NCBI GenBank assembly: GCA_015231405.1 | Contig: JADGBR010000013.1 | Location: 7,222-71,221 of the forward strand | DNA: 64,000 nt | Origin: Candidatus Omnitrophota bacterium | Lineage (GTDB): Bacteria; Omnitrophota; Gorgyraeia; Tantalellales; Tantalellaceae | Reading direction: 5' to 3' | Part shown: piece by piece, positions 21,219-45,245 of the stretch | Layout of the letters: each line of letters starts with the position of its first letter | Position numbering within the stretch: the stretch's first letter is position 1 | Translations under genes and position numbers: made by a program | The notes under the pieces: generated by a model | Databases searched by the model: none | Seen by the model: only the letters and a program-made list of their open reading frames with translations | Told to the model about the DNA's origin: nothing

Positions 21219-21308
<90 letters not shown>

Positions 21309-23569: not shown

Positions 23570-25006
23570 ATGGGAGACGGAAGGATGGGAATAGCAGATA
23601 TAGCGGTTCTTGCGGCCATAGCCGCCGGGAACTGGTTCTTGAAGACATTACCCAGGCGGGGGATCCCTCTATACGGCGCGGATAGCTGGATAATGCTGTG
23701 CTGGGCCCGCAAATTCAGGGAGAAAGCGCCTAAGAGCGAGTTCTCTGACCATTTGGTCCATAACGAACGGCATGATTATCCGGACCTCTTCCCCAAAATG
23801 CTCTCTTTTCTTGATGATAAAGCCGCGCTTAAATTCAATAGTATCATACCGGTTTTTTTTGACTTATGTAATCTCCTGATAGTTTTTGGCATTAGCTATT
23901 ATGTTTTCCGAGAAACCTTTCCCGCGGCCGTCTCGGGGGTCGTTTACTCGCTTTTCCCGCCGTTATTGACACAGCACGCTTGTTTGAACTCAAGGTTCCC
24001 GGGATATCTGTTCGTCAATCTCAGCATCGGCTTATTGATCATAGGCAGGGCCGAGGGGGTATTGCCCGCGACGATCGCCGGGATAGCCGCGGGGGGGTTA
24101 GTGCTCAACACCCACAGGTTCTCGGCACAGGCTTTTTTCGCGGCGCTGGCGGGGATGTCTGTTTTTGAGGGGACATGGTATTACGCTCTGGCGCTCGCAG
24201 GGTCGATATTAGCGGCGATCGCTTTTTCGGGGGGATTTTACCTCATTGTCTTGTCGGGACACGCCAAGATCATCCGGCTCCATTATACCAAGTTCAGGAC
24301 AACGCCGTACGAAAAGATCCGGTTCAAAGGATCTATGCTGAAAACGGTCCTGTGGGGATCGATGCTCCTCATTGGAGTATTTGGCGCCGATATGGCAGGT
24401 GCTCATATCCCCGGGATGTATGTCTCCACCGTCAACTGGGCGGTATCCCTGTTCGCGGCTTTTATCCTCACGACTTTCATTATATACCTCCATCCGTTCG
24501 GGCAGGGATACAGATATCTCGAATATTGCATCATGCCTCTTTCCGTGCTGTTCGGGAGCGCCGTCGCGATCCGAGGTCCCTTATGGCCTGTTGCCGCCGG
24601 CCTGTTCGCAGTGTACGCGGCGGTTTCGGCGCGGAAAATATCGGTCCATGCCCGCGAGATCCGGGCAGATTATGAGAACATAGTGGATAAGGACAGGCTG
24701 AGGATATTCGAGATCATAAAAAAGTCCGGCATACGGAATATTCTTTGCGTGCCTAACGCGCTCGCGCAGTCGGCGGCGTATTTCACAGGTAAAAAGGTAT
24801 TGTGGACCTATAACGCGTGGGAAAGGTATCCCTGGATGTTCCCGAAGATAACCATGCCCCTAAAGTTCGAACTCGCGGAGGTCATCAAGGAGCATGATAT
24901 AGACGCCGTGCTGCTTCACGAAAAGTTCGCTGCCCGGGGCGACCTTAAAGCTCGGACAGAGTTGATAGCCGCTGAAGGCCGGTATTTACTGCTGAGGTTG
25001 ATATGA
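23570..25006 (+). CDS. polytopic membrane protein (possible glycan polymerase/GT-C-like)
   Basis: About 10 TM helices and C-terminal cytoplasmic domain; no firm family assignment. Confidence 0.5.
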   Translation: MGDGRMGIADIAVLAAIAAGNWFLKTLPRRGIPLYGADSWIMLCWARKFREKAPKSEFSDHLVHNERHDYPDLFPKMLSFLDDKAALKFNSIIPVFFDLCNLLIVFGISYYVFRETFPAAVSGVVYSLFPPLLTQHACLNSRFPGYLFVNLSIGLLIIGRAEGVLPATIAGIAAGGLVLNTHRFSAQAFFAALAGMSVFEGTWYYALALAGSILAAIAFSGGFYLIVLSGHAKIIRLHYTKFRTTPYEKIRFKGSMLKTVLWGSMLLIGVFGADMAGAHIPGMYVSTVNWAVSLFAAFILTTFIIYLHPFGQGYRYLEYCIMPLSVLFGSAVAIRGPLWPVAAGLFAVYAAVSARKISVHAREIRADYENIVDKDRLRIFEIIKKSGIRNILCVPNALAQSAAYFTGKKVLWTYNAWERYPWMFPKITMPLKFELAEVIKEHDIDAVLLHEKFAARGDLKARTELIAAEGRYLLLRLI

Positions 25007-26040
25007 CGATGCTGAGGCGAACAACGAAAGCGGCTAAACTTCTGGTTATCCGTCCAAGGGGGTGGAAGAGCGCTATTACCAACCAGCTCGCGGCTTATAT
25101 GGGAAGGACCCGGGCGCCGTTCGCGCCTACCCTTGCCGTTATAGAGGTATCGGCCTTATGTTCGCTCGCATGCCCCGTTTGCGAGACCGGGGCCGGGAAA
25201 CTGGGCAGAGAGCAATCTCTTATGTCGCTAGAGGTTTTCCGTACGGTCATAGACAGGATATCGCGGCATATCAACACAGTCTTTTTATACTGGATGGGGG
25301 AACCTTTTCTGAACCCTGAGATATACGGTATGATATCTTACGCCAGGAGTAAGAACATATACGTGGCGGTATGTACGAACGGGGAACAGATGGATACGGA
25401 AGCTCTTTTGGAAGCCGGGCCCGATGAGGTCCAGTTCCAGGTGGCGGGGACAAGCCAAAAGGCCCATGAGAGATACAGGGTCGGGAGCACCCTCCGTAAC
25501 GTCGAGACCAATATCGGTCGCCTGGCCGGAGGTAAAAAAGAACATGGCAAAAAACGCCCCAGGATACTGGCCGGCCTCATAGTCACAAAGTACAGCGAAA
25601 AAGAAGCGCACGCTTTCGACGGCTGGGCGAGAGCCCTCGGCGCGGACGGCAGCATGCTTATAGATCTCTGGGTGCGAGACTATGATCAGGCCGTTGAGTT
25701 TTTACCCGAAGACAGGAAATACTGGCTTTATGATCCCCTGGCGTTCGAGGCGAAAGAGCTGAAGCTGAAGGACGGGACGGGAGGGAAGTGTTATTCAGTA
25801 TGGCACATGGTGACCGTTAACTGGAAAGGCGAAGTCTTTCCATGCTGCAGGGATACGGCTAACCGATACCGGATGGGAGATCTTCTGAAAGACCCGCTGG
25901 AAAAGATATGGAACAGCCGTGAATATATGGAGTTCAGGAGGAAAGTATTGCCTGGCCATTTTGGGCCCGATCTTTGCCGGCTTTGCCCCAGTTTCGGTGT
26001 TCCGAACCTGGGGAGTGTCGATACGGGAGACGGGAAATGA
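25003..26040 (+). CDS. radical SAM/SPASM domain protein
   Basis: CSLACPVC (Cx3Cx2C) and C-terminal Cys-rich SPASM region ..FPCCRD..CRLCPS; ATGA coupling. Confidence 0.75.
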   Translation: MTMLRRTTKAAKLLVIRPRGWKSAITNQLAAYMGRTRAPFAPTLAVIEVSALCSLACPVCETGAGKLGREQSLMSLEVFRTVIDRISRHINTVFLYWMGEPFLNPEIYGMISYARSKNIYVAVCTNGEQMDTEALLEAGPDEVQFQVAGTSQKAHERYRVGSTLRNVETNIGRLAGGKKEHGKKRPRILAGLIVTKYSEKEAHAFDGWARALGADGSMLIDLWVRDYDQAVEFLPEDRKYWLYDPLAFEAKELKLKDGTGGKCYSVWHMVTVNWKGEVFPCCRDTANRYRMGDLLKDPLEKIWNSREYMEFRRKVLPGHFGPDLCRLCPSFGVPNLGSVDTGDGK

Positions 26041-27227
26041 GTAAAATATTATTCCTTTGCTCGTTCTCGCTTGAGGCTGCCCGGAAGAAAGGCATGCCGA
26101 CGGAAGGTATCGCAGCTGAAAGGGATTATACGGGGTATTTCGAGCATGTGCATACGGTCCATTTCCCCGTCGAACCGGAAATGTCCGTAATGATAGGGCC
26201 CAGGCACACGGTGCATGAATTTTCGAAGGGAAGGTTCGGTCCGTTTGCCGGGGTAAAGCTTGTCAATAATTTCTTAAGCGTGGCGGTATTCCTTTTTAAA
26301 GTGCGTCGGCTCCTGATCCGTGAGAGGATAGACATTATTAGGGCCATAGACCCCGGAGAGCAGGGGGCGTACGCTTATATCCTTTCAAAATTGACGGGGG
26401 TCCCCTGGTGCGTTTCCGTCCACGCGGACAGGGACCTTTATCACGATATGGCGGGGACTTTCCTGCTTTTCGGGTCGCGGAAAATATCAAGGGCGGTAGA
26501 GAAGTTCGTGCTCAGAAGAGCGCCGCTGGTGCTGGCGATCAGCAGGTACATAGCGGATTGGGTTATCTCCATGGGCGCGGACCCCGACAGGGTAAGGATC
26601 ATTTACCACGGGATAGACGTTTCCGGGGACGAAGGGCCCGGGGCCGATCCAGGCGTAGGTTTTAAAGTCCCGGAAGGGAAAAAGGTCGTTTCGTTCGTCG
26701 GCCGGCTCAGCAGGGAGAAATACGTTCACGATGTCGTGCTGATAGCGGAAGAACTTTCAAAGAAAAGGAAAGATGCTGTCTTTCTTATCGTGGGAGAAGG
26801 TCCCGAGAAAGAAGATCTTAAAAATATGATATCTGCGCGCGGTCTGGCTGGGACAGTGATCCTTCTTGGCGCGAGGCCCAACGCCGAAGTTAACCGGATA
26901 CGGAAGATATCGGATGTCAATTTCTGCCCTCTTTCGGGGTTCAGCCTTCTCGAAGCCGCGCTTTCAGGTAAACCTGTTGTAGCTTATGACGTGGAATGGC
27001 ACAAGGAGCTGATAGAGAACGGCAAGACAGGCATGCTGGTACCGAAGGGGGATACGGCCGCGGCTGTCGCTGCGATGGACAAACTGCTGAGCGATCCCGC
27101 GCTGGGAGCGGAACTCGGGAAAAATGCCAGAGATACCGTTAAAAACCGACATTCCTTGGAAAAGGTATCGCGCGCCAAATTGGATTGTTATCGGGAATTG
27201 TTAGGTATAAATTCGCGTCGTCTCTAG
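26037..27227 (+). CDS. glycosyltransferase family 4
   Basis: GT4 C-terminal domain FVGRLSREK...LEAALSGKPVVAYDV..ELIENGKTG (EX7E-type). Confidence 0.8.
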   Translation: MSKILFLCSFSLEAARKKGMPTEGIAAERDYTGYFEHVHTVHFPVEPEMSVMIGPRHTVHEFSKGRFGPFAGVKLVNNFLSVAVFLFKVRRLLIRERIDIIRAIDPGEQGAYAYILSKLTGVPWCVSVHADRDLYHDMAGTFLLFGSRKISRAVEKFVLRRAPLVLAISRYIADWVISMGADPDRVRIIYHGIDVSGDEGPGADPGVGFKVPEGKKVVSFVGRLSREKYVHDVVLIAEELSKKRKDAVFLIVGEGPEKEDLKNMISARGLAGTVILLGARPNAEVNRIRKISDVNFCPLSGFSLLEAALSGKPVVAYDVEWHKELIENGKTGMLVPKGDTAAAVAAMDKLLSDPALGAELGKNARDTVKNRHSLEKVSRAKLDCYRELLGINSRRL

Positions 27228-27373
27228 CGGGATGACATAGGATCATGGTATTGGTTTTGCCAAATGGAGACGTTAGACCTTGTTTATCAGGGAGTCCTGA
27301 CAACTTGAGAAAGTATGGATACGATATCGATGATGTGTGTTGTTTTGCGAGCGAGCAATATGGGGGGGTATTT

Positions 27374-27970
27374 ATGGATGCCGTTAATAAAATGGGAATG
27401 AAATATTTTGTCCACCATACAGCCGTCATAGACGATGAAGTCGTGATAGGAGACGGCACTAAAATATGGTTTTTTTCGCATATACTAAAAGGTTCGAGGA
27501 TAGGGGAAAACTGTATTCTTGGTCAGAACGTCGCGATAGGGCCTAATGTAACGGTTGGCTCAGGATGCAAGATCCAGAATAACGTTTCGCTTTATCCGGG
27601 AACGGTCTTGGAAGATAACGTTTTCATCGGGCCTTCGGCGGTATTTACGAACGTGCTGACCCCGAGGGCGTTCATCGAACGGAAAGACGAGTTCAAGCAA
27701 ACGATAGTTAAACAGGGTGCCGCGATAGGGGCCAATGCTACGATAGTATGCGGTGTGACGATAGGTGAATATGCCTTTGTCGGTGCGGGTGCGGTGGTCA
27801 CAAAAGATGTCGCTCCATACGCTTTGGTAGTCGGCGTGCCTGCGAGACAAAAAGGGTGGGCTTGCAAATGCGGAGTTCCGCTGGAAGAGGAAGATGATCG
27901 TTGCGCTTGTCGACGCTGCGGTGCCGAATATGTCATCGAGGCCTCAGCGTTGAAAGTAAAATCTGTTTAA
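27374..27970 (+). CDS. hexapeptide-repeat sugar N-acetyltransferase (WbpD/PglD-like)
   Basis: Left-handed beta-helix repeats IGDGTKIWFFSHI..IGENCILGQNVAIGPNV..; ORF open from 27245 but homology begins near ATG 27374. Confidence 0.7.
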   Translation: MDAVNKMGMKYFVHHTAVIDDEVVIGDGTKIWFFSHILKGSRIGENCILGQNVAIGPNVTVGSGCKIQNNVSLYPGTVLEDNVFIGPSAVFTNVLTPRAFIERKDEFKQTIVKQGAAIGANATIVCGVTIGEYAFVGAGAVVTKDVAPYALVVGVPARQKGWACKCGVPLEEEDDRCACRRCGAEYVIEASALKVKSV

Positions 27971-28000
27971 TTTGCGACAAATAGTACAAGGGGATAATAT

Positions 28001-29060
28001 GGGCAGCAGAATAAAAAGATTCGCCCTTATCGGGTGCGGCCGGATAGCTAAAAAGCACGCCGAAGTCATAAAACATCTTCAGGGGGCTTCTCTGGCCGCC
28101 GTAGCTGATATCGTTCCCGGGAAAGCGGAACATTTCGGGAAGACGTACGGCGTCAAGTGGTATACGGATTATATGAAGATGTTGGAAAGCGAGGATATCG
28201 ATATCGTGAACATCCTAACCCCGTCCGGGGCGCATATTTCGGTCGGAATGGATGTAGTAAAAAAGAAAAAGCACATTATTATCGAGAAACCCCTGTCCCT
28301 GAACGTCAAGGACGCCGATAAGATCATACACCTGGCAAGGGAGAACAACGTAAGCCTCTTTGTAGTCAAGCAGAACAGGTACAACCTTCCGGTGGTCAAG
28401 CTCAAGGAAGCGCTGGACGCCGGACGGTTCGGCAAACTGGTCTTGGGCGCCGTCAGGGTCAGGTGGTGCAGGAAACAGGATTATTACGACCTGGATCCGT
28501 GGCGAGGGACGAAGGCGATGGACGGGGGAGTGTTGACCAACCAGGCAAGCCATCACATAGATCTTTTACAGTGGTTATTGGGACCGGTCGACAGCGTTAT
28601 CGCTAAAACGGCTACGATGCTCGCCCGGATCGAAACGGAAGATACGGGGGTGGTGATCGTAAAGTTCAGGAATGGAGCCTTGGGAGTGATCGAGGCGACA
28701 ACCTGCGCTAGGCCGGTAGACCTGGAAGGGTCGATAAGTGTTCTCGGTGAAAAAGGTTCAGTGGAGATCGGAGGGTTCGCCGTGAACGAGATGAAAACAT
28801 GGATATTCGATAAATTCATCCCCGGAGACGACGATATGGGGAAATATTCACAGAACCCGCCCAATGTTTACGGGTTCGGGCATTACAGGTTCATGGAGGA
28901 AGCCCTCGAGTGTATCAATACCGGCAGAAAATTTTTGGTCGACGGGATAGAGGGGAAGAAAAGCGTCGAGCTTATCAACGCTATTTACAAGTCGGCCGAG
29001 ACGGGGAAAGAAGTTTTTATTGGAAAGAAAGGACATTTTATGGAAGAGGAGATCTGTTAA
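28001..29060 (+). CDS. Gfo/Idh/MocA family sugar dehydrogenase (WbpB-like)
   Basis: FALIGCGRIAKKH Rossmann N-terminus, EKPLSLNVKDADKII motif. Confidence 0.75.
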
Positions 29061-29061
29061 G

Positions 29062-30438
29062 GTGAAAGAACATCCGACGCATAAAGTGCTGCTCTCGGCT
29101 CGCGGCTTCCTCGCGACCAATTCCAGCGAGGATCTGGTGATGTGCATATACCGGTTCGCGAGGGCCAGGATCAGCGGCGAATACCGGGTAGTTGTAGAAG
29201 AAGAAAGGCTGGAACGGTTCGCGCGGTTCATTACAGGCCTTGACGATGTTAAATATGCCGCATCAGGCGGGATAGAGGCGATGCTGAAAAAAGATAAGTT
29301 CGATACGGTAATATCGGCCGTTCCCGTGACACTCAGGCAAGCTCTTATCAATTGTTCGGTTTTTATCGCGAAGGGTAAAGCGCGGTTCTTAAGGGCCGAT
29401 CTTGAAAAACGGCTCATAAGCGAAACGGGTTTCGCGGATATAGTGAGGGACATCGCGAAGAACATGTTCTCACGCCCGGCGCTGAATTCGGTGCTTGCCG
29501 CTCTGTCCCGCCGTCTGAGGCTCGAGAAACCTTTGGGCACGCCTCGGTCGTTGATCATCGAAACCGTGAACATGTGCAACCTTAAGTGCCCGTTGTGCCC
29601 TACCGGTACCGGGTCGCTTGGAAGGACCGGAGCTCGGATGGAGCTCTCTGTATTCAAAAAACTCGTTGATTCCAATCTCGGGGTTTTTTTGAATACAGAG
29701 AGCATTTACATGGATTTTTACGGCGACCCCCTGATGAACAGGGATATTTTCGGCATGATAAAATATCTTAAGGATAAAGGCGCCGGGCACGTCGAAATAA
29801 GTACTAACGCCAGTTTCCCGTTGGACGAGCGGAAGGCGCGGGAGATCGTTATGTCAGGTGTGGACCTGATCCTTTTCGCCGTTGACGGGGCCGACCAGGA
29901 AACGTACTCCAGATACAGGAAAGGAGGGGATCTTTCCGCCGTAAAGGAGTTCATCAAAGGTCTGGTCCGGATGAAAAAAATCCTTGGCGCGGTCAAACCG
30001 TATCTTGTCCTGCAGTTCATACTCATGAAACATAACGCGCATCAGCTGCAGGCGGCCAAAGAGATGGCCGTTGTGCTTGGGGCCGACAGTTTCAAAATAA
30101 AATTTCTTGACGTTTTCCGTTCAGACGGAGGCGATGTCGAAGAGTTCATACCCGACGATCCAGGGAGCGCGCAGTACGTTAAAAAGGCGGATGGGTACGA
30201 ACACAAGAGATCCACAGGGAACAATACGTGCGGGTTGCTATGGTCTTCGGCGGTTATCATGGTCGACGGCTCGGTCGTCCCGTGCTGTACCGACGCCAGA
30301 GGCAGGGTGGTATTGGGCAACGTTTTCAAGCGCGGTATCGAACATATCTGGAAAGGGGAAAAGTACAGGGATCTCAGGCGCGAGATCCACAGGGATAAAA
30401 AAGCGATACCGCTTTGCCGGGATTGCCCGAGCCAATGA
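29062..30438 (+). CDS. radical SAM/SPASM domain protein with ~180-aa N-terminal extension of unknown function
   Basis: CNLKCPLC cluster and C-terminal SPASM cysteines (VVPCCTD...PLCRDCPS); GTG start after upstream stop. Confidence 0.7.
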   Translation: MKEHPTHKVLLSARGFLATNSSEDLVMCIYRFARARISGEYRVVVEEERLERFARFITGLDDVKYAASGGIEAMLKKDKFDTVISAVPVTLRQALINCSVFIAKGKARFLRADLEKRLISETGFADIVRDIAKNMFSRPALNSVLAALSRRLRLEKPLGTPRSLIIETVNMCNLKCPLCPTGTGSLGRTGARMELSVFKKLVDSNLGVFLNTESIYMDFYGDPLMNRDIFGMIKYLKDKGAGHVEISTNASFPLDERKAREIVMSGVDLILFAVDGADQETYSRYRKGGDLSAVKEFIKGLVRMKKILGAVKPYLVLQFILMKHNAHQLQAAKEMAVVLGADSFKIKFLDVFRSDGGDVEEFIPDDPGSAQYVKKADGYEHKRSTGNNTCGLLWSSAVIMVDGSVVPCCTDARGRVVLGNVFKRGIEHIWKGEKYRDLRREIHRDKKAIPLCRDCPSQ

Positions 30439-31187
30439 TTATGGAACTACTGAAAAAAATATTATCCAGGATAAACCCTTTTGGCTTGTATGAAACATAT
30501 CGGGGCGAAAGGTATAAGGAGATGGCCGCTACGGACCCCAAGGGCCCTGAATGGCTGTACAGGGCGTTCTTTCCAGGGGATATCATCCCGGGCCGGGAGG
30601 CGCATATCCTGGATATCGGGTGCGCCGGGGGTCGAATCACCGCTTTTTTCGCCCAGGACCGGCCGAATGTCATAGGAATGGACCTGAAACCGGACGTTGG
30701 GTGGAAAAGGGCGGCTAAAGCGCGTTTTATCCTGGCCGATTCCGAAGCAATACCGTTCGGGAACTGCACTTTTGACATATGTTCCTTGATACAGGTATTG
30801 GAGTATGTGGACGGCGACAGGGCGGCGCTCTCCGAAATTTACAGGGTACTTAAACCCGGCGGCAGGCTGGTGCTGCAAGCCGCAAACAGGGACGGCATAT
30901 ATTCGCTCATCACGGGAAAAAAGATAGATGCAAGGCACAGGCATTGGTACACAAGAGACGGTATAACCACGATACTTATTGAGGCGGGGTTCAGGGTGCT
31001 GTCGGTCAAAGGGTTCGGCGCGAGGATACCGGTCATCTCGAGGCTTATCTTCATGGCGAGGCCGTACCCTTATCCCGAACTTTATCCTGACCTTTTTCTC
31101 TCGAAGCTGGTCCCGGAGAAGAACAGGCCGTTCTTCAATATTGTCTGCGAAAAATTGTCCGGTACGCGTTCCGGGAGGCAGGCATGA
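30435..31187 (+). CDS. class I SAM-dependent methyltransferase
   Basis: ILDIGCAGGRITAFF motif I; VLKPGGRLVL post II. Confidence 0.75.
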   Translation: MIMELLKKILSRINPFGLYETYRGERYKEMAATDPKGPEWLYRAFFPGDIIPGREAHILDIGCAGGRITAFFAQDRPNVIGMDLKPDVGWKRAAKARFILADSEAIPFGNCTFDICSLIQVLEYVDGDRAALSEIYRVLKPGGRLVLQAANRDGIYSLITGKKIDARHRHWYTRDGITTILIEAGFRVLSVKGFGARIPVISRLIFMARPYPYPELYPDLFLSKLVPEKNRPFFNIVCEKLSGTRSGRQA

Positions 31188-32179
31188 ACGACATGAGAGG
31201 GATGATCTGCCTCGATTGCGGAGGTGCGCTGCAACCCGGCGGGAAGGACAGCGGGGTCATATGCGCTTCATGCGGCAAAAATTATCAAGTCCGGGAAGGG
31301 ATCCCGTTCATCCCGGGAAAGAAAGATCTTTCGGGATATGATACCGGGATCGCCGGCGAGAATGCCCGCATCTATGATTCGTTGGCCGACCTCGGAACTC
31401 AGGTAAAAGGCGTCAACCTGCTTTTATCGGAATACTATACCGACAGGATCAGGGATATACATATCGAACTTCTATCGCCGTCGCTTTCACCTTCGGCGAA
31501 AGTGCTGGAGGCCGGATGCGGGCTGGGAAAGATTTCCAGGGCGCTCACCGGCATCACGGCCGGGTACCACGGGTTCGACATCTCTTACGCCAGCGTGAAA
31601 AAAGCCAGGGACATATGCATGCCGGGAAACTCCAGGTTCTTTGTTGGCAATGTCCTGGCGATACCGTTCCCCGAGGGGTATTTCGACGCCGTGGTCAGCT
31701 CCGAGATGCTGGAGCATGTCCCCGCCGATAAAGCGGCCATCGCCGAGATGAAAAGGGTGCTGAAGCCGAAAGGCCTTTTGAGCGTTTCCGTGCCGAATTC
31801 CATGATGGCTTTTTATCCGCTGGAATTCTTTTCCATGGTTAGGCATTACGGCCTTAAAAAATTCCGAAACCTTATCAGAAGGGAACTTGACTGGGCCGCG
31901 GACGAGGCATATGACAGGCCTTATATGCCGGGGCAGTTCAGAAAGCTATTCACCGAAGAGGGCTTGTCGATAGCGGCTCACAGGACGGCGCTGTGTTATC
32001 TGTGGCGAAGGCCTTATTCCGACGTTATCGAATGGCTTGAAAAAAAGAAGTGGTTCGACCCCGCGGGGTTCGTCGAAAGGTATTTTCGAGTTGACTCTTT
32101 CATGACAGGAAACAGGCTGCCGGTTTTGGGAATGATGGGGACCAGACAGTTCATACTCGCTCGTAAGGATAGATCATGA
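31184..32179 (+). CDS. class I SAM-dependent methyltransferase with N-terminal Trm112-like zinc ribbon
   Basis: CLDCGG...CASCG Cys4 ribbon then VLEAGCGLGKISRAL and VLKPKGLLSVSVPN. Confidence 0.7.
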   Translation: MNDMRGMICLDCGGALQPGGKDSGVICASCGKNYQVREGIPFIPGKKDLSGYDTGIAGENARIYDSLADLGTQVKGVNLLLSEYYTDRIRDIHIELLSPSLSPSAKVLEAGCGLGKISRALTGITAGYHGFDISYASVKKARDICMPGNSRFFVGNVLAIPFPEGYFDAVVSSEMLEHVPADKAAIAEMKRVLKPKGLLSVSVPNSMMAFYPLEFFSMVRHYGLKKFRNLIRRELDWAADEAYDRPYMPGQFRKLFTEEGLSIAAHRTALCYLWRRPYSDVIEWLEKKKWFDPAGFVERYFRVDSFMTGNRLPVLGMMGTRQFILARKDRS

Positions 32180-34143
32180 GGCTGACGGTTAAATCGGCAG
32201 CGCTGGCTTCATTCGCGGCCGTATCCTCCGCCGGGGGATATTTCCTGGTTACCGGCAAATACGGGGCCGGGGGCATATTGTTCATTGCCGGGGTATATTT
32301 TTTCTTTCTCTGCTTTCCGTTGTCCATACGGATGCAACAGGATAAGGGCAGCGGGAAGGCATTATTCAGGGACGCCGATTCGGATTATCTGGTTGTGGTC
32401 GATCCCGAGAAAATAGCCGCGGACGCCGCGCTCAACGATTTTTCGGGGAATGACTGGAGTTATGCCTGGTGCAACACCCTCATGCAGGAAACGGGATGGT
32501 TTGCGGTATGCCGCGCAAAAGAGGTCTCGAGGTGTATCCCGAAGAGGAGAGCTATCATCGTGACGAAAAGCGCCGCCGGGACAATGCCGGGCGGAACCGA
32601 ACAGGAACTGTCGGATTTCGTGTCGTCCGGAGGTGTTCTGGTCCTGGAAGACCCGGATAATTCGTGGCGCGGTCTGACAGGCTTGACTTTGGGCGACGGT
32701 AAGGTAAGCCCCACTCGGGTATCGTATGTGGACGGCGATATCGCGGCAAAACCATACGATGAAATTATAATGGGGTTACCGCTTAACACGGACATGAGAA
32801 CCGTTTCCTGCGTCGAAGGGGATACGCGCGTTGTCATGAAAATGGACGATATCCCGGCGGTTTGCCTGAGGGAATACGGGAAAGGCGGGGTAGTGACCGT
32901 CAATTTCAATTACGGCCTTGAGCTGGTGTCGCTTCAGCAGGGTATCCCGTCCACTTCCGATTACGCGGTCAAAGGCAAGATCGGGCAGCCGCAGGACATG
33001 ATTTCGTTTGAAAAGATGATCGATAATAGTGTACCATATGCGGATATCCTCGAACGGATAATCGCCGGGGCGGTCAACAAGCTTTCCCCCATACCGTCCT
33101 GGTGGTATTTTCCAGCGGAATACAAAGGGGTGAACCTTGTCACGCATGACTGCGAAATGATGGGCGACGACCTGATCGATACGGCGCTCACCGAAGATCG
33201 GATGGGGGTAAAAAGCACATTTTTCATTATCTGGAACAGTCCCGTCGGCCTTGAGACACTGTCCCGGATAGGCAGGCTCGGGACGGATATAGAATTGCAC
33301 TGGGACAGGGCGTATTTACGCAGGCTTGGGGTCAATGTCCTGGGTTTCATGAAAAAAGCCCCGGGTAATATCAAACAATGGTTTTATCGTCTCGGCGACA
33401 GGTGCCGCGCGGTACCGGCGGCGTCCGAGGTCGGGTTGTCTGAGCAAAAAGGGTCTCTCCGGGATAAATGCGGAACGGATATATCCCTTAACAGGCTCCA
33501 TGGACTTCGCTGGGGGAGGCACTATACGGAACCTTTTGGGATAATGGAAAGGGCGGGTATAACCGCGGATTCAAGTTTCGGTCCGAACGACAACGCCAAG
33601 GGATATCTTTTCGGGACGGCTCTCCCGTTCCATCCCATAGACGTGAACGGGTACCCTTTCGAGATACTTGAACTCCCGTTCCAGACGCTTGAAGCCCGCA
33701 GGGGCGCCGATATAGGGTTCATACGCAAGCTTTTCGAGGAAAGCGGGGACCTGTATAATCAGGCTATAGTGACCAATTACCATCCGGACAGGAGTTTCAA
33801 AGGGAGCGATATAGAACGGCAGTGGAAAGAGACATTTGAGGAAGCCGCGAGGAACGGGCATTGGACGACAACGATGAAAGAATATATCGGATTTTTTTCA
33901 GGGCGTTCCTCGAGCCCGATATGTTCCGGGCTGAAAGGCGGAAAGATCGATATTCAGGCGGAATCCCGGGTGCCCGGGATGTGCCTCAGGTTCCCCGCAG
34001 ATATCCTCGAGGAAGGGTCGGGGATCTTTTTAGACGGCGCTGAGGTAAAGCCTGTCTTTGCCCGCGACCTCGGGATAAGGACGGTCCTCGTCGGCATACC
34101 CGAAGGCAGGCACCGCGTAGAACTGACGATAAAGGCAAGATGA
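32176..34143 (+). CDS. large membrane-anchored hypothetical protein (possible carbohydrate esterase/deacetylase-like domain)
   Basis: N-terminal TM pair; 655 aa; weak NodB-like hints only. Confidence 0.45.
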   Translation: MRLTVKSAALASFAAVSSAGGYFLVTGKYGAGGILFIAGVYFFFLCFPLSIRMQQDKGSGKALFRDADSDYLVVVDPEKIAADAALNDFSGNDWSYAWCNTLMQETGWFAVCRAKEVSRCIPKRRAIIVTKSAAGTMPGGTEQELSDFVSSGGVLVLEDPDNSWRGLTGLTLGDGKVSPTRVSYVDGDIAAKPYDEIIMGLPLNTDMRTVSCVEGDTRVVMKMDDIPAVCLREYGKGGVVTVNFNYGLELVSLQQGIPSTSDYAVKGKIGQPQDMISFEKMIDNSVPYADILERIIAGAVNKLSPIPSWWYFPAEYKGVNLVTHDCEMMGDDLIDTALTEDRMGVKSTFFIIWNSPVGLETLSRIGRLGTDIELHWDRAYLRRLGVNVLGFMKKAPGNIKQWFYRLGDRCRAVPAASEVGLSEQKGSLRDKCGTDISLNRLHGLRWGRHYTEPFGIMERAGITADSSFGPNDNAKGYLFGTALPFHPIDVNGYPFEILELPFQTLEARRGADIGFIRKLFEESGDLYNQAIVTNYHPDRSFKGSDIERQWKETFEEAARNGHWTTTMKEYIGFFSGRSSSPICSGLKGGKIDIQAESRVPGMCLRFPADILEEGSGIFLDGAEVKPVFARDLGIRTVLVGIPEGRHRVELTIKAR

Positions 34144-35630
34144 TAAAGGACGTAAAAGATTTTTTCTGCAATTACATGTTCCAGATCGCCGGGTTCGCCG
34201 CGCGGGTGATCATCGGCGCGGCCACGTTATGGCTCCTGACGAATGTTCTGGGCCCCGGTGGATACGGAACTTATACCGTTTTCCTTATGGTCGTTTCGGT
34301 CGGGCTCGCTTTCACGTCTAACTTTACTCACGCCGCGGTAGATATTACCGGCAGGGACGAATATATACGGGCGGGGCATATACGCGGGACATTCTGGGCG
34401 GAATCCGCGCTTTTAGGGGTACTTCTCACCGGGATATGCATAGCGGGGTATTTTTACAGGGATGTTCTATCCGGGTACATAGGTATCGTGCCTGGCATGT
34501 GCGGTCTGGTCCTTTTGTACCTTATCGTTTCGGCGCTTGCCCAGTTCCTTCAGGATTGTTTCCAGATAACGAGCAGGATGAGGAAATTCGCGCTCGTGCC
34601 TCTTTCCGTGCCGGCGGTCTTTGCGGCGCTCCTGGCATGGTCATATCTTTCGGGACGGGGATTGAACGTGGAACTGGCGATAACTTTCGGGGTGATAGCG
34701 GCGGTGGCAGGGATGGCCGCCGGGCTCCTGTTCCTTGACAAGGAACTGATATGGCCGGCTGTTTTCGATCCCGGGAAGGCGGGGGAGCTGATCCTTTTAT
34801 CCCTGCCGTTCGTTTTTTCCGGGGTGGCGGGCTATGTGTTTGATTGGGTGGACCTTGTGGTGATAAAACGGTTCCTGACAAGCGCGGATGTCGGTATATA
34901 CGCCCTCGCTTACCAGATGACGGCTTTCCTGATAATTTTCACTAGGCTCACCACGAACCTCAATGTTTCGATAATAACGAACTGGAAGATACAAGGCAGG
35001 GACGATCTCGTCAGGTTCTTTGTGGAAAGGACGGTGCCGCAGGTAACGTTCGTTTTTTCGCTTGTTCTGGTCGTGTGCATGACGCTGGCGGGTGCCATCT
35101 TTAAGATATTCAGGCCGGAGTATTTGCCGGGCGTTCCGGTATTCGTTATCCTTATTTCCAGCGTATGCTTCAGGAACCTGCACGCGTTACAGGCTCCGGT
35201 GCTGACCGCGTACAGGATAATAGTACCGTGCTCGGTGGTGAGCGTTTTAGCGGTCCTCGTCAATTTCGCAGCGGATATGGCGATGGTCCCGGTGATCGGA
35301 ATAATCGGTCCGGCCATAGCGACGTTCCTGGCGGTGCTTTTTTCCGCCCTTTTCCAGACATTGTTCATAGACCGTCGTTTGGGGACGAATTCGGCGTCGC
35401 ATTACTTATGTTCGGCCCCGGCGCTGGCCGCTTTGCCGGTATGCTTTTTCCCGGGCATTCCCCAGGCTGTCAGGCTTGTTCTGGGGGCGCTGATAATAGT
35501 TATATCCGTTATGGCCGCGAGGCGGGCCGCTCTTCTGAAGAGTTCAGATATGGAACTGTATAATTCTATGGACCTCCCCGGGTTCATATCCTCGGGGTTG
35601 GGTAAGATAAGCAGGGTGTTGATAGCATGA
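34140..35630 (+). CDS. wzx: Wzx-type oligosaccharide flippase (MOP superfamily)
   Basis: 12-14 TM helices, N-terminal LLTNVLGPGGYGTYTVFLMV signature of polysaccharide biosynthesis flippases. Confidence 0.7.
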   Translation: MIKDVKDFFCNYMFQIAGFAARVIIGAATLWLLTNVLGPGGYGTYTVFLMVVSVGLAFTSNFTHAAVDITGRDEYIRAGHIRGTFWAESALLGVLLTGICIAGYFYRDVLSGYIGIVPGMCGLVLLYLIVSALAQFLQDCFQITSRMRKFALVPLSVPAVFAALLAWSYLSGRGLNVELAITFGVIAAVAGMAAGLLFLDKELIWPAVFDPGKAGELILLSLPFVFSGVAGYVFDWVDLVVIKRFLTSADVGIYALAYQMTAFLIIFTRLTTNLNVSIITNWKIQGRDDLVRFFVERTVPQVTFVFSLVLVVCMTLAGAIFKIFRPEYLPGVPVFVILISSVCFRNLHALQAPVLTAYRIIVPCSVVSVLAVLVNFAADMAMVPVIGIIGPAIATFLAVLFSALFQTLFIDRRLGTNSASHYLCSAPALAALPVCFFPGIPQAVRLVLGALIIVISVMAARRAALLKSSDMELYNSMDLPGFISSGLGKISRVLIA

Positions 35631-37198
35631 TCACTAAAAGGTCCGGCAGGAAAAAAGTCATTCTCGTAAAACCACATTACGCGCATAAATGGGATTACAG
35701 GGACAGGGACCCTGACGTCCAGGTTCCCACGGGGCTCCTGTACGTCGGAACGACGCTTAAGGCCAACGGGTACGATGTGAAGATAATCGACGCTACGGCA
35801 GATAAAGACTATAAGCGGACGGCGGTCGCAAATCTCGACGGCGCGGTCTATGTGGGTATAACCGCGATGACCGCGCAGCTTGCATCGGCTATAGATATCG
35901 CCGGCGAGATAAGGAAAGCGGATCCCGAAGTCCCTCTGGTGTGGGGCGGTAACCACCCGTCGCTTTATCCCGAACAGACATGCCTCGACGAACTCTGCGA
36001 CATAGCGGTAATTGGCGAGGGGGACATGACAGCCGTCGAGCTGGCGGGCGCTTTAGAGGCTGACGGGGATCCCCGGGGCGTGAAAGGGATCTGTTTCCGG
36101 AGGGGAGGGGAAGTGGTCACTACCGGCGGGAGGGGGCTGGTGGATGTCGAAGCCCTTCCGGAACCGGATTACGGCCTTCTCGGCGATGTCGAGAAATACA
36201 TATGGGGGTATTTCCCGGCGTACAGCGATAAACCTTACAGGTTCCTGCCGGTACACGCCGGCAGGGGATGTTTTTACAGATGCAGTTTCTGCATGGAGAA
36301 CGTCGAGAAAAAACACAGGTCCCGGACCGCGAGGCAGATAGCCGATCAGATAAAACGTCTAATGGAGAAATACCGGATAGAGGCCATAACTACGATAGAC
36401 TCCGATTTCTACGCGGACAAAAAACGGGTCAAGGAATTCGTCGACATCGTAATTAACGAGCGTATCGGGATCAAGTGGATGGGGAACTCGCGCGCTAATT
36501 ATTTCAGGGATGATTATATCGACCGGGAATTCGCCGAAAAACTAGAGATCTCGGGCTGTTTCAGGGCCGGACTGGGTGTCGAGACGGGGTCGACAAGGAT
36601 CCTGGAGTATATCCGTAAGGACATAACCCATGATCAGGTCAGGCGTGCGGTAGATGTCCTGAACACCACGGGAATAATCGTCGCCTGTTCGTTCATGATA
36701 GGGATCCCGGGTGAGACCAAGGATGATATGGTTGCGACTTTCAGGTTCATACGCGAACTCTACAAGAAGGCAAAAAAGATCTATATCATCGGCCCGGCCG
36801 AATACAGGCCTTATCCGGGATGCGACCTTTTCGAGGAAGCGACAAAACAGGGGCTTCTTGTTCCGGACAGCCTCAGGGGATGGGGCGAAGCCATGAATTC
36901 GTTCTGGGGCTATCTCGGTTCCGAGAGGTTCCCGTGGGTGGAAGACCACAGGTTCATCAAGTATGCGACAACGGTGATCCCGTTCCTCTACACCACAAAT
37001 TGTGTGCCTAAGCGCCGGGCCGTATGGCCGCTGTATCTCATTGTCCGAGCCATCGTAGAGGTCCGGGTCAGGTTCGACCTCTGGGGCATACTTTTTGAGG
37101 ACAGGCTGATACTGAAAGCGGCCTCTATCTGGCAGGCGGCGAAGCCTGTTCCCGGTAAGATAAAGGAGATCATATGGAAGAGACCTTTTTGTCGATAG
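35627..37198 (+). CDS. B12-binding domain radical SAM protein
   Basis: N-terminal cobalamin-binding Rossmann-like region, CFYRCSFC radical SAM cluster. Confidence 0.75.
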   Translation: MITKRSGRKKVILVKPHYAHKWDYRDRDPDVQVPTGLLYVGTTLKANGYDVKIIDATADKDYKRTAVANLDGAVYVGITAMTAQLASAIDIAGEIRKADPEVPLVWGGNHPSLYPEQTCLDELCDIAVIGEGDMTAVELAGALEADGDPRGVKGICFRRGGEVVTTGGRGLVDVEALPEPDYGLLGDVEKYIWGYFPAYSDKPYRFLPVHAGRGCFYRCSFCMENVEKKHRSRTARQIADQIKRLMEKYRIEAITTIDSDFYADKKRVKEFVDIVINERIGIKWMGNSRANYFRDDYIDREFAEKLEISGCFRAGLGVETGSTRILEYIRKDITHDQVRRAVDVLNTTGIIVACSFMIGIPGETKDDMVATFRFIRELYKKAKKIYIIGPAEYRPYPGCDLFEEATKQGLLVPDSLRGWGEAMNSFWGYLGSERFPWVEDHRFIKYATTVIPFLYTTNCVPKRRAVWPLYLIVRAIVEVRVRFDLWGILFEDRLILKAASIWQAAKPVPGKIKEIIWKRPFCR

Positions 37199-37905
37199 TG
37201 ATACCGGCGTACAACGAGTCTCACAGGATAGCAAAAAGCCTGGAGGAGATAATCGAATACCTCGAAAAGAAGATATTCTCCAGCGAGATAATAGTCGTTG
37301 ACGACGGCAGTACCGACGATACCGTGAGGATCGTAGAGGAAAAGTTCCGGGGGAACAACGTGAGGGTCATCCGGAACGGACGGAACCGAGGCAAAGGCTA
37401 TACTGTGAGGAACGGGATGCTGGCGGCAAAGGGTAAGTATATACTCTTCGCGGACGCGGATAACGCCACCCCCATAAATGAGCTTAACAGGCTTCTCCGG
37501 GAGCTTGAAGAGGAAGACATCGATTTCGTCTATGGCATAAGGCTTATACGCCGCGAAGGCGGGTTCTTGAAGAACCTGATCCGGAAATTTATCGGCAGAG
37601 GTTTTCTGTTCCTTGCGCATGCGATAGTTCTCAGGGAGTTCGTTTATGACACGCAGTGCGGGTTCAAATGTTTCAGGCGGGAAGCCGCCCGGAAAATATT
37701 CGAAAGGGCTCTCATAGAAAGCGGGGTGTTCGACGTGGAGATATTCTTTCTGGCCGAGAAACTCGCTCTAAAAGGGACGCCTGTCCCGGTGCACTGGAGG
37801 CATATGCCGGGATCAACAATAAACATCTACAAATGTATTATCGGCGACCCGTTCTCCATGATGCGGATCAAAATGAACGATATGACGGGGAAATATGAAA
37901 GGTAA
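37174..37905 (+). CDS. GT2 polyprenyl-phosphate glycosyltransferase (ArnC/Dpm1-like)
   Basis: LSIVIPAYNES..IIVVDDGSTDDT, DAD motif FADADNATP. Confidence 0.75.
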   Translation: MEETFLSIVIPAYNESHRIAKSLEEIIEYLEKKIFSSEIIVVDDGSTDDTVRIVEEKFRGNNVRVIRNGRNRGKGYTVRNGMLAAKGKYILFADADNATPINELNRLLRELEEEDIDFVYGIRLIRREGGFLKNLIRKFIGRGFLFLAHAIVLREFVYDTQCGFKCFRREAARKIFERALIESGVFDVEIFFLAEKLALKGTPVPVHWRHMPGSTINIYKCIIGDPFSMMRIKMNDMTGKYER

Positions 37906-38980: not shown

Positions 38981-39668
38981 ATGGGAAGATCTGCATAACG
39001 CGAATTCGTCCTGGAGGAAAACCCTCGTGGGCCAGATATCGGATCTATATACCGTTCCGAAATATCTGGGACTGTTCAGGGAATATTTCGGCAGGGAAAA
39101 AGGCCTTGATACGCTGGAGCTGGGCGCCGGCAACGGCGACCTCAGCATGCGGCTTGTTTCGGAGAACAAAGGAGGTATTATAGGCAGTTATACGGTGTCC
39201 GAGAATTATGAGGAAGGGGTCAGGAACCTCAGGGCCCGGGGGATGGAGGCGAAACTTATCAACGCGGAAAATACGGGTCTCGGGCCAGGCTCTTACGACC
39301 TCGTGTGCGCGTTTGACATAATGCACCATGTGAAAGACCCTCGCGCGATGGCTCGGGAAATGGCGAGGATCAGCAGGAAATACATTTTCCTCACCGAGGC
39401 TAATGGTCTCAGCCTCGGGAGAAAGCTCTTTGAGCGTAAAAAGATGTACCGGGACGCCGGCGAAAGGTCGTACCTGCCGCGGGTGTACAGGTCGTTCTTC
39501 GACGCCGGGGTTTTCAAGGAACTCGGGATCGAGCCGTTCCTTTTCGTATTCAAGACGCCTGAAAGGTTCATAAAACACGTCATAGCGTTCAGCGAAGCGA
39601 TCGAGAAGATACCGGTCCTCCGATGGCAGTGCGCGTCGCTGGTGATCTTCGGGGAGAAAAGAACATGA
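38973..39668 (+). CDS. class I SAM-dependent methyltransferase
   Basis: LELGAGNGDLSMRL motif I; type-11-like. Confidence 0.7.
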   Translation: MTEWEDLHNANSSWRKTLVGQISDLYTVPKYLGLFREYFGREKGLDTLELGAGNGDLSMRLVSENKGGIIGSYTVSENYEEGVRNLRARGMEAKLINAENTGLGPGSYDLVCAFDIMHHVKDPRAMAREMARISRKYIFLTEANGLSLGRKLFERKKMYRDAGERSYLPRVYRSFFDAGVFKELGIEPFLFVFKTPERFIKHVIAFSEAIEKIPVLRWQCASLVIFGEKRT

Positions 39669-40995: not shown

Positions 40996-41003
40996 GAGAG
41001 AAA

Positions 41004-41993: not shown

Positions 41994-42020
41994 AGGTCTT
42001 TTACCGGGCAAGGGGGGAAC

Positions 42021-43204: not shown

Positions 43205-43210
43205 GGCAGA

Positions 43211-43273: not shown

Positions 43274-43303
43274 CGGAATCTAACAGAGAAGGAGAAGTGA
43301 CGG

Positions 43304-43984: not shown

Positions 43985-43985
43985 T

Positions 43986-45245
43986 ATGACAAAGAGAACC
44001 ACTCTCATCATTTCGATGATGCTGGGCGCGTTCCTCATGGGAACGGTGTTCATTTTCGCGGTCAAGCCCTATCCGGGAGCGGATTTCGCCGTATACCAGA
44101 GGCTGGGGCATAATATCGCCGCCGGGCGGGGATATTCCCAGGAGATATCGGCGCCTTTCATCCCCGACGGCATGAGGGAGCCGCTTTACCCCATGTTCCT
44201 CGCGGTCGTCTACCGCCTGTTCGGCTTTAATGACGTCGCTGTGTATCTCATTCAGGCTCTTCTATATTCGCTCAGCGCGTTCATCCTTTACCGCGCTTCT
44301 TTGGAGATCGCGGACGAAAGGACATCTATCCTTGCCGGGTTCATATTCGCGCTTTGCCCTTTCACGGCGTATTATTGCGGCATGATATACGCCGAGATAC
44401 TCGCTACCTTTCTACTCGTAACGGTAACGTATCTTCTCACGCGTTATGTAAGAACGGGAGGGGTTTTAGCCCTCGTTATCGCGGGGCTGCTTACGGGATG
44501 TCTCATCCTGACTAAAAGGATGTATGTGTTCTACCCTTTCGCCGTAGCCGGTGCTCTTTTTCTGAGGAGGAGGCCGAATATCCGGCGTAAGGCCCTCGAG
44601 ATCATCGTTATTATTTTCACTATGGCAGCGGTTATGGCCCCATGGGCAATGAGGAATTACGCCACTTTCGGGAGGTTCATCCCGCTTGTCAACGGGTATG
44701 GGCCAGGGGTGTTTTTTTACATATCGACGGTACAGTTCAAGGGAAACCTGACCGGGGTGGGCTATGAAAATAATCCTCTTGTCCTGGAACAGTTCGAGCA
44801 GATGTTCCAGGAAGGAGGGTTCTCCCCTGCCGAAAAAGAGAGTTTCCCTTTTGTGCCGGGCTCGAGCGCCATATGTTTCAAATACGCCATTAAGAACATA
44901 CAGGACGACCCGGCGGATTATGTAGCGGGGCTTATAAAGAAGATCCCGAGGCTTTTTGTGCACGTTTATTCTCCGGGGCATGAACAGGGCCCGGTCTATA
45001 TTACCTCCGCCATCGCCCTCGCGATCTATGCGATAGGCTTATACGGCATTTGGGTTGCAAGGGCCAGTTGGAGAAAAATGGCGTTCTTTCTGCTGCCCAT
45101 AGTGTATCTGTCACTTACGGCCTTATTGACGGTCATGACCTCGAGGTACACCGTTCCGGCCAGGCCTCATCTCATGTTCTTCGCGGCCGCGGCGCTGATG
45201 TCGGCGTTAAACAGGAGGCGTGGTCCTTTTGAAAAAAAACTCTGA
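43986..45245 (+). CDS. GT-C fold membrane glycosyltransferase (ArnT/PMT_2-like)
   Basis: Multi-TM, N-terminal periplasmic-loop pattern ..GRGYS...REPLYPMFLAVVY..LLYSLSAFILY typical of family 39/83. Confidence 0.6.
   Translation: MTKRTTLIISMMLGAFLMGTVFIFAVKPYPGADFAVYQRLGHNIAAGRGYSQEISAPFIPDGMREPLYPMFLAVVYRLFGFNDVAVYLIQALLYSLSAFILYRASLEIADERTSILAGFIFALCPFTAYYCGMIYAEILATFLLVTVTYLLTRYVRTGGVLALVIAGLLTGCLILTKRMYVFYPFAVAGALFLRRRPNIRRKALEIIVIIFTMAAVMAPWAMRNYATFGRFIPLVNGYGPGVFFYISTVQFKGNLTGVGYENNPLVLEQFEQMFQEGGFSPAEKESFPFVPGSSAICFKYAIKNIQDDPADYVAGLIKKIPRLFVHVYSPGHEQGPVYITSAIALAIYAIGLYGIWVARASWRKMAFFLLPIVYLSLTALLTVMTSRYTVPARPHLMFFAAAALMSALNRRRGPFEKKL

Follow-up and report, generated by a model that had tools for sequence, protein, structure and literature searches.

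Radical SAM enzymes with a probable role in carbohydrate tailoring in the surface-glycan loci of an Omnitrophota bacterium

The DNA analysed here is a stretch of 64,000 nucleotides from a Candidatus Omnitrophota bacterium (GenBank assembly GCA_015231405.1, contig JADGBR010000013.1, positions 7,222 to 71,221), hereafter the window. It carries four genes coding for radical S-adenosylmethionine (SAM) enzymes, S1, S2, B1 and B2, that lie among genes of glycan synthesis (Table 1). According to the gene map and Pfam scans, all four open reading frames (ORFs) are intact where a first-pass annotation had placed them, and their domains score above the Pfam gathering thresholds. S1, S2 and B1 belong to a plus-strand operon of ~21 kb (21492-42620) whose largest intergenic gap is 48 nt and in which most neighbours overlap by 4-46 nt. 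The start of S1 overlaps the preceding stop by 4 nt, S2 begins 1 nt past a GFO-family gene and B1 overlaps the stop of the Wzx gene by 4 nt, while B2 shares 14 nt with the gene of a PseC-type aminotransferase in a convergent minus-strand operon. The enzymes are thus embedded in, and coupled to, glycan genes as described at first. Their attribution to a single glycan locus holds only in part: all four lie among glycan genes, but B2 is in the separate convergent operon, which serves another sugar pathway. The four enzymes represent three families in two pathways, not one system. They probably tailor carbohydrates during surface-glycan biosynthesis rather than maturing peptides.

The plus-strand operon opens with genes for an ArnA/UXS-like short-chain dehydrogenase (SDR), a GNAT protein and a polytopic membrane protein without family, followed by S1, a GT4 glycosyltransferase, a hexapeptide acyltransferase, a GFO-type dehydrogenase and S2. 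Two methyltransferases, a large protein without family, the Wzx flippase, B1, a GT2 glycosyltransferase, a GFO-type dehydrogenase and a methyltransferase come next, and the 3' end codes for an NTP-transferase, a methyltransferase, a GHMP kinase and a SIS isomerase, in this order. A second plus-strand block downstream encodes three PMT_2 enzymes of the GT-C type, several GT4s, AsnB, a transglutaminase-like protein, a GT::DUF218 protein and an SDR. The convergent operon reads PseC, B2, GFO and CTP_transf_3::aminotransferase. Products of the genes between S1 and S2 match the NeuD/PglB/VioB family and a UDP-GlcNAc 3-dehydrogenase-like model in NCBIfam. The polytopic membrane protein that precedes S1 and the large protein that precedes Wzx match nothing in Pfam or NCBIfam, relaxed thresholds included.

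Table 1. Radical SAM genes and neighbouring features in the window (aa, amino acids; TM, transmembrane)
Feature	Positions	Strand	Basis or remark
Polytopic membrane protein, 478 aa	23570..25006	+	Six hydrophobic segments; translationally coupled to S1
S1, Twitch-type (BtrN-like) radical SAM enzyme, 345 aa	25003..26040	+	Pfam Radical_SAM and SPASM
GT4 glycosyltransferase, hexapeptide N-acyltransferase and GFO/IDH/MocA sugar dehydrogenase, between S1 and S2	25974..29060	+	Pfam
S2, Twitch-type radical SAM enzyme, 458 aa	29062..30438	+	Pfam Radical_SAM and SPASM
Two class I SAM methyltransferases directly 3' of S2	30414..32179	+	Pfam
655-aa protein, one N-terminal TM segment and a large soluble domain	32176..34143	+	
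Wzx-like flippase	34140..35630	+	Pfam Polysacc_synt 39.7 bits; ~12 predicted TM segments
B1, B12-binding-domain radical SAM enzyme, 523 aa, between Wzx flippase and GT2	35627..37198	+	Pfam
Soluble GT2 glycosyltransferase, 243 aa, overlapping the end of B1	37174..37905	+	Pfam Glycos_transf_2 117.6 bits
NTP-transferase	39623-40390	+	Pfam
Methyltransferase	40387-40995	+	Pfam
GHMP kinase	40965-41993	+	Pfam
SIS isomerase	42021-42620	+	Pfam
Three tandem overlapping PMT_2 (GT-C fold, ArnT-like) membrane glycosyltransferases	43986..47902	+	Pfam; 8-12 TM segments each
CTP_transf_3::class III aminotransferase fusion, downstream of B2	58559-60418	-	Pfam
GFO oxidoreductase, downstream of B2	60415-61401	-	Pfam
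B2, B12-binding-domain radical SAM enzyme, 458 aa	61414..62790	-	Pfam
PseC-type aminotransferase, 5' of and overlapping B2	62777..63913	-	NCBIfam TIGR03588 489.8 bits, cut-off 423.5

Radical SAM identity was judged by the CxxxCxxC motif for the SAM-cleaving [4Fe-4S] cluster together with a PF04055 score above the cut-off of 29.5 bits. Each protein has a single such motif at the expected place (residues 53-60 in S1, 172-179 in S2, 215-222 in B1 and 218-225 in B2) and Radical_SAM scores of 44.6, 49, 81.5 and 86.9 bits, respectively, so that hidden Markov models (HMMs) bear out the motifs reported earlier for all four. S1 and S2 match in addition the Pfam SPASM model (55.5 and 63.6 bits). B1 and B2 have an N-terminal Rossmann-like B12-binding domain (PF02310, 67.8 and 50.2 bits, cut-off 32.1) followed by the radical SAM core.

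S1 and S2 are paralogs (31% identity, E 1e-46). Their C-terminal cysteines are spaced C-x17-C(C)-x42/43-C-x2-C, which corresponds in S1 to C263, C281/282, C325 and C328. In an alignment of 155 family members seven cysteines are essentially invariant, three in the radical SAM motif and four in the C-terminal domain. The second cysteine of the 'CC' pair is found in 126 of the 155 members (81%) and replaced by Glu in 22; BtrN has Phe at that place. Full SPASM domains are defined by a seven- or eight-cysteine C-terminal motif, CX9-15GX4C ... CX2CX5CX3C ... C, and two auxiliary clusters. S1 and S2, with only four conserved C-terminal cysteines, are therefore of the Twitch type and not the SPASM-type enzymes that they had been taken for; the Pfam SPASM model still matches them because it covers the half-domain common to SPASM and Twitch. 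One radical SAM cluster and one auxiliary [4Fe-4S] cluster are predicted for each.

The closest relative of known structure is BtrN, the 2-deoxy-scyllo-inosamine dehydrogenase of butirosin biosynthesis (PDB 4M7S/4M7T) and founding Twitch-domain radical SAM enzyme. It is the best PDB match for S1 and for S2 (E 3e-12 for S2), and HMMER alignments to 4M7S/4M7T bring all four C-terminal cysteines in register with the ligands of the BtrN auxiliary cluster. The family profile finds BtrN at 2e-28, GDGT-MAS at 2e-15, BlsE at 8e-15 and PqqE at 2e-13, with RiPP maturases (enzymes of ribosomally synthesised and post-translationally modified peptides) and anSME weaker still (5e-6 for anSME). Foldseek against the PDB with the AlphaFold2 model of S2, whose core (~residues 140-458) has a confidence (pLDDT) >85, places BtrN first as well, with a target-normalised TM-score of 0.69-0.75. 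BlsE and DesII are also among the fold and sequence matches. BtrN shares with S1 and S2 a partial TIM-barrel radical SAM core and a C-terminal four-cysteine domain, and its substrate is a carbohydrate-like small molecule, not a peptide. The two Omnitrophota proteins are however 75-190 residues longer and only 16-19% identical to BtrN, and the window has no genes of the 2-deoxystreptamine pathway, which argues against orthology. BtrN serves aminoglycoside antibiotic synthesis, whereas S1 and S2 are found in Wzx-type surface-glycan loci and their family is often fused to GT2 or methyltransferase domains.

Radical abstraction of hydrogen from a sugar carbon by HygY, NeoN, BlsE and DesII results in epimerisation, oxidation, decarboxylation or deamination. 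These four enzymes act on soluble antibiotic intermediates. For HygY and NeoN the return of hydrogen is reported to depend on a cysteine, which would be compatible with the frequent extra cysteine of the S1/S2 family.

S2, identical to NCBI protein P0001 with the same start, has an N-terminal extension of ~130 residues (29062 to ~29460) ahead of the catalytic core (~29465-30438); the family alignment starts at about residue 135. The first-pass annotation had reported an unassigned extension of about 180 residues, of which the presence and the lack of a family match stand but not the length. The extension is peculiar to S2, with no homolog covering >73% of the query. It is predicted to be helical with a pLDDT of 35-55, and it matches no Pfam family at E<=5, PqqD and the RiPP recognition element (RRE) included. 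It is probably translated, since chance would seldom keep so long a frame open and the rest of the operon has no gaps. The idea of a degenerate GT2 or methyltransferase domain, which came from fused relatives that carry those domains at the same position, was rejected: hhalign probabilities are <2%, no BLAST match is found, the Pfam search is equally negative and the AlphaFold2 confidence is low.

The S1/S2 family is large, an exhaustive profile search retrieving 10,216 clusters at 50% identity (E<=1e-30). A scan of one genome per species gave at least 594 relatives, of which the best 80 loci were analysed with neighbours called by HMMs built from the window's own proteins and confirmed with Pfam. 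These 80 relatives come from DPANN archaea, Planctomycetota, Cloacimonadota, Latescibacterota, Gemmatimonadota, Calditrichia and Marinimicrobia. A GT2 gene lies within 5 kb of the Twitch gene in 60 of the 80 loci and directly neighbours it on the same strand in half of them (40/80), those of DPANN archaea, Latescibacterota/Gemmatimonadota, Planctomycetota and Marinimicrobia; a PMT_2 GT-C gene is found directly 3' in eight of the 80. Further homologs have Wzx, Wzy, GT4 and pyruvyl transferase genes around them. Ten long family members were examined for fusions: five carry GT2 (two of these also a cupin), two a class I methyltransferase, one AAA_17 and two further radical SAM domains. The orders GT2-rSAM, GT2-GT2-rSAM, GT2-rSAM-cupin, cupin-rSAM-GT2, rSAM-GT2, rSAM-MT and MT-rSAM all occur in the family (rSAM, radical SAM; MT, methyltransferase). 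One GT2::rSAM fusion, P0003, has methyltransferase genes on both flanks and so mirrors the window, in which two methyltransferases lie 3' of S2 and a GT4 lies 3' of S1; adjacency or fusion of Twitch enzymes with methyltransferases recurs among the relatives. Generic radical SAM genes of unrelated function might have come to lie in a large glycan island incidentally, as anaerobes are rich in such genes and the four lack functional assignments. This is hardly credible in view of the start and stop codons that overlap with glycan genes and of adjacency and domain fusions that recur over several phyla and both prokaryotic domains.

The six closest homologs, from DPANN archaea (~40% identity), are encoded in operons of the order GT2, Twitch enzyme, PMT_2. 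These operons diverge from SDR-SIS-GHMP-(GHMP::HAD)-NTP-transferase genes, and pairs of B12-type radical SAM and GT2 genes occur with them. The DPANN SIS, GHMP and NTP-transferase proteins are 36-42% identical to those of the window. The Omnitrophota window and the DPANN loci share the whole gene set and the Twitch enzyme is therefore tied to the sugar made by that module. Five DPANN loci (L006, L009, L010, L011 and L015) have SIS, GHMP, NTP-transferase, GT2, Twitch radical SAM, B12 radical SAM and PMT_2 genes in common with positions 35627-47902 of the window, which suggests that a surface-glycan module moved between domains, among ultra-small organisms. As to the sugar itself, the top NCBIfam match of the SIS protein is GmhA (93 bits, cut-off 209) and that of the GHMP protein HddA (160 bits, cut-off 600), while HddC is the fourth match of the NTP-transferase (109 bits, cut-off 300). 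This trio and the GHMP::HAD fusion of the DPANN counterpart loci make it plausible, from these likenesses, that the module produces a sugar of the heptose type linked to a nucleoside diphosphate (NDP).

A peptide substrate would call for a precursor. No small intergenic ORF is present within the operon 21492-42620 and none is conserved across taxa in the 80 related loci, which agrees with the lack of a precursor-like ORF reported at first. Small ORFs that initially seemed conserved proved to be shadow frames within the GT2 genes of Latescibacterota loci that are nearly identical, and none was left after an intergenic filter. PqqD or RRE domains were not detected in S1 or S2 by Pfam at E<=0.001, and the N-terminus that precedes the cluster motif spans only ~40-60 residues in the family. 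S1 and S2 could still be RiPP maturases if the precursor is encoded elsewhere or was missed, with the glycosyltransferases and methyltransferases decorating the peptide as in glycocin or mycofactocin pathways. The match to the Pfam SPASM model, weak sub-threshold NCBIfam matches to PqqE, MftC and sactipeptide maturases, and weak scores of some neighbouring GT2s of relatives against MftF are in line with this role. The operon offers neither space nor a small ORF for a precursor, a single auxiliary cluster and BtrN as nearest relative speak for another substrate, and the Wzx, Wzy, NDP-sugar and GT-C genes of these loci typify polysaccharide assembly. A RiPP role of S1 and S2 is accordingly unlikely, to the point of being very improbable.

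S1 and S2 might instead resemble anSME and mature a protein or cofactor, activating a partner enzyme (GT2, alkaline-phosphatase-type or metalloenzyme) without acting on sugars. Their top NCBIfam matches bear the names 'tungsten cofactor oxidoreductase rSAM maturase' and 'putative metalloenzyme maturase', but with 95-115 bits for cut-offs of 380-400. In loci L004 (3481-9062) and L005 (2412-7993) two Twitch/SPASM paralogs alternate with two Phosphodiest genes of the alkaline phosphatase superfamily, adjoining Wzx, Wzy and a DltB/DltA-like pair of MBOAT and AMP-ligase genes, and an AFOR gene is found near the homolog in L002. No sulfatase, alkaline phosphatase or AFOR gene is near S1 or S2 in the Pfam scans of the window. 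Moreover, anSME has two auxiliary clusters and lags far behind BtrN in the PDB search (5e-6 vs 2e-28), and fusions to methyltransferases and cupins suit small-molecule tailoring better, so that a maturase role has a low probability.

B2 has its best PDB matches in QCMT (9CCB, 8e-28), a B12-dependent C-methyltransferase, followed by AprD4 (1e-23). At E<=1e-40 the homologs number more than 2000, with identities of 60-66% in the best 120 clusters listed; they come from Omnitrophota, Margulisbacteria, Elusimicrobiota, Thermodesulfovibrionales and Actinobacteria. The gene order (PseB-like SDR), DegT, B12-type radical SAM, (GFO), CTP_transf_3 is kept in Margulisbacteria, Thermodesulfovibrionales and Elusimicrobiota, NeuB being separated from it by a few genes. 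In the window, the PseC score exceeds the equivalog cut-off and the operon also encodes a CTP_transf_3 domain. NeuB is absent from the window, the operon starting at or beyond position 64000, and is found in three orthologous loci. In the Margulisbacteria locus L090 the B2 ortholog is followed by the same GFO, CTP_transf_3 and aminotransferase genes. The last two, which are separate and adjacent there, are fused in the window, where the aminotransferase part is of class III and resembles glutamate-1-semialdehyde aminomutase. By its conserved gene neighbourhood B2 appears to be an uncharacterised extra step of a nonulosonic acid pathway of the pseudaminic acid type.

B1 is only 30% identical to B2. 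Apart from one relative at 87% identity, its homologs do not exceed 40%, and one of them is an Omnitrophota fusion of a B12-type radical SAM enzyme with a methyltransferase. Homologs of B1 are encoded next to Wzx and GT4 genes and some are fused to a methyltransferase or GT2. In three loci the gene directly follows a GT4; the next gene is Polysacc_synt (Wzx) in two of them and an unannotated 495-residue gene in the third. One locus with a B1 homolog also has two Twitch enzymes and a B12-rSAM::GT2 fusion. Locus L086 (14867-15548, the gene running off the end of the locus) codes for a 732-residue B12-binding radical SAM::GT2 fusion; B12-type enzymes, like the Twitch type, can therefore be fused to a glycosyltransferase. 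The Omnitrophota contig L087 has AsnB, transglutaminase-like and GT::DUF218 genes in the same order (3319-7008 and 14757-16292) as the window (50306-54787) and also carries B12-type radical SAM genes adjoining Wzx. B1 is therefore a recurrent component of Wzx-dependent loci of this type.

The N-terminal B12-binding domain and radical SAM core of B1 and B2 are also the architecture of QCMT, the GenK/Fom3-type C-methyltransferases, HpnJ, BchE and AprD4. BchE and HpnJ are the top NCBIfam matches of both proteins, whose best scores (138-163 bits) are three- to five-fold below the cut-offs of 360-750 for BchE, HpnJ, QCMT, PhpK and GenK-like models. Their contexts, beside Wzx and inside a pseudaminic-acid-type operon, are unlike that of any characterised class B member. 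Methylation of sugar carbons is an established chemistry of class B radical SAM enzymes, as in GenK and relatives (PMC12931638). An Rfam scan of the whole window found no cobalamin riboswitch, its only hit being a tRNA.

The sub-threshold HpnJ and HpnR matches of B1 and B2 bring up a lipid substrate, either the polyprenyl carrier or membrane lipids, on which the enzymes would act like Tes/GDGT-MAS or the hopanoid enzymes HpnP and HpnR. In the PDB search with the S1/S2 profile GDGT-MAS ranks second, some adjacent GT2s resemble lipid glycosyltransferases of the HpnI/HpnB type and the hosts, DPANN and Omnitrophota, have unusual envelopes. The GDGT-MAS match spans only the radical SAM core, however, and Pfam detects no lipid-synthesis gene in the operon. 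The genes most strongly linked to these enzymes are those of NDP-sugar synthesis, Wzx and glycosyltransferases, and B2 lies inside a soluble nucleotide-sugar pathway. Lipid modification is thus improbable.

The intact genes and motifs, the family placement, the architecture with one auxiliary cluster in S1 and S2, and the linkage by position and fusion to glycosyltransferase, methyltransferase and NDP-sugar genes are best explained as a whole by carbohydrate tailoring. We infer that the substrates are sugars, either nucleotide-linked, lipid-linked or in a nascent repeat unit, and hold this substrate class to be quite likely. The first-pass annotation had proposed radical chemistry on sugars and not RiPP formation. 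Its main thrust stands with BtrN as the nearest relative, the fusions to GT2 and methyltransferases, and the shared SIS/GHMP/NTP-transferase trio. The particular reactions that it named, C-methylation, epimerisation and C-C or ether bond formation, are guesswork.

Several observations weigh against carbohydrate tailoring. None of the four proteins reaches an equivalog cut-off in NCBIfam, S1/S2, B1 and B2 being three biochemically uncharacterised families, and the best NCBIfam matches of S1 and S2, far below cut-off, are the putative metalloenzyme maturases TIGR04317 and TIGR04311. About 25 Cloacimonadota loci have no recognisable glycosyltransferase beside the homolog. The 80 loci are not phylogenetically independent and include many near-identical Latescibacterota arrangements. 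The pairing with alkaline-phosphatase-superfamily genes in L004 and L005 hints at a possible maturase-type role there. The GT2 partners could be either polyprenyl-phosphate-sugar synthases of the Dpm1/GtrB/ArnC type or glycosyltransferases of the glycan itself: the synthase models match below cut-off and chondroitin synthase scores higher in the PDB; the DPANN partners are devoid of TM helices. A heptose-based glycan, also put forward at first, keeps its GmhA and HddA top matches and the fourth-ranked HddC, but all three scores are below cut-off and no GmhB/HAD phosphatase is found in the window by Pfam or NCBIfam scans. Finally, a B12-binding-like domain is no proof of cobalamin use by B1 and B2, as AprD4 has such a domain without binding B12 (PMC12931638).

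If these enzymes do act on carbohydrates, a mechanism can be sketched, although the specific chemistry is tentative and the exact reactions of S1, S2, B1 and B2 are speculative. In S1 and S2 the 5'-deoxyadenosyl radical would take a hydrogen atom from a carbinol carbon of an NDP-sugar, a polyprenyl-phosphate-linked sugar or a nascent repeat unit; the sugar may be the heptose-like one of the SIS/GHMP/NTP-transferase module. The auxiliary cluster would then accept an electron to yield a keto-sugar, as with BtrN. Alternatively, hydrogen might be returned to the opposite face to give an epimer, with the frequent extra cysteine of the 'CC' pair as candidate donor. The modified sugar could provide neighbouring methyltransferases, aminotransferases or acyltransferases with a substrate under anoxic conditions. 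B1 would most likely be a C-methyltransferase for a sugar of the same Wzx-exported glycan. B2 would probably act on a 4-amino-4,6-dideoxy-hexose or nonulosonate intermediate from PseB/PseC, most likely by methylation; both would methylate unactivated sugar carbons.

The order GT2, radical SAM, GT-C in the DPANN loci suggests that a polyprenyl-phosphate-sugar is modified between its synthesis and its transfer. ArnD, NaxD and DprE1/E2 are analogues for the modification of a lipid-linked sugar. By analogy with the position of these enzymes, the GT2-coupled Twitch enzymes may form a widespread, unrecognised class of glycan-tailoring enzymes that carry out oxygen-independent radical oxidation or epimerisation around sugar transfer, and B2 may lead to a new C-alkylated nonulosonic acid. 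This wider proposal is a possibility rather than an expectation. In the window, the tandem PMT_2 paralogs imply polyprenyl-phosphate-sugar donors used outside the membrane, and the small soluble GT2 that overlaps B1 is a candidate donor synthase for them. AglJ, ArnC, PpgS and Dol-P-hexose transferase are among its best NCBIfam matches, all below cut-off, and no TM segment is predicted in it.

At the upstream border of the glycan operon, tRNA-Ser(cga) (21219-21308, minus strand) is found in a 704-nt gap. The stretch at 20-22 kb around it has the lowest GC content of the window (0.44 vs ~0.52 elsewhere), and this could mark an island boundary. Further upstream of the glycan region lies an ORF of 2001 amino acids (8801-14806, minus strand).

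Members of the S1/S2 family are not restricted to uncultured organisms. A tblastn search of plasmids found them in cultured bacteria, above all on the 36-kb plasmid pBHWA1 of Brachyspira hyodysenteriae (L089). Its segment 7270-20028 has seven radical SAM genes among rfbABCD, glycosyltransferase and epimerase genes, five of them arranged head-to-tail (10855-16105). Six of the seven products show the same Twitch cysteine pattern, with E-values of 1e-13 to 1e-30 against S1/S2. Radical SAM and glycan genes are interleaved as in the window, but identity is 20-28%, the context is that of rhamnose and lipooligosaccharide and not a heptose-like/Wzx one, and a B12-type enzyme is missing. A block of the plasmid genes, which is linked to colonisation or virulence, is absent from B. 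hyodysenteriae strains of reduced pathogenic potential, and no function was given for the plasmid radical SAM proteins (La et al. 2014, PMC4267127). These proteins could offer a culturable model for the Twitch family.

Radical SAM genes in glycan loci have been seen in annotation and never explained, and no paper that gives a chemistry to such enzymes in polysaccharide loci was found in the open-access literature. The proposal here is that of carbohydrate-tailoring radical SAM enzymes put to use in surface-glycan assembly. To our knowledge, sugar tailoring by radical SAM enzymes has been established almost wholly from antibiotic pathways (BtrN, HygY, GenK, AprD4). The window and hundreds of related loci present three uncharacterised families that are hard-wired into surface-glycan assembly by operon coupling, by fusion to GT2 and methyltransferases, and by insertion in a nonulosonic acid operon. 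Their hosts are mostly uncultured anaerobes and DPANN archaea, and also a pig pathogen in which the plasmid block of radical SAM genes correlates with virulence. If their role is as proposed, these genes would mark surface sugars beyond current pathway prediction, such as C-methylated, epimerised, keto or amino sugars. The natural GT2::rSAM fusions and the highly conserved B2 family are candidates for enzymology, through which the vague annotation 'radical SAM protein' becomes testable. Anaerobes, among them ultra-small DPANN and Omnitrophota cells, would then have a distinct route to unusual surface sugars.

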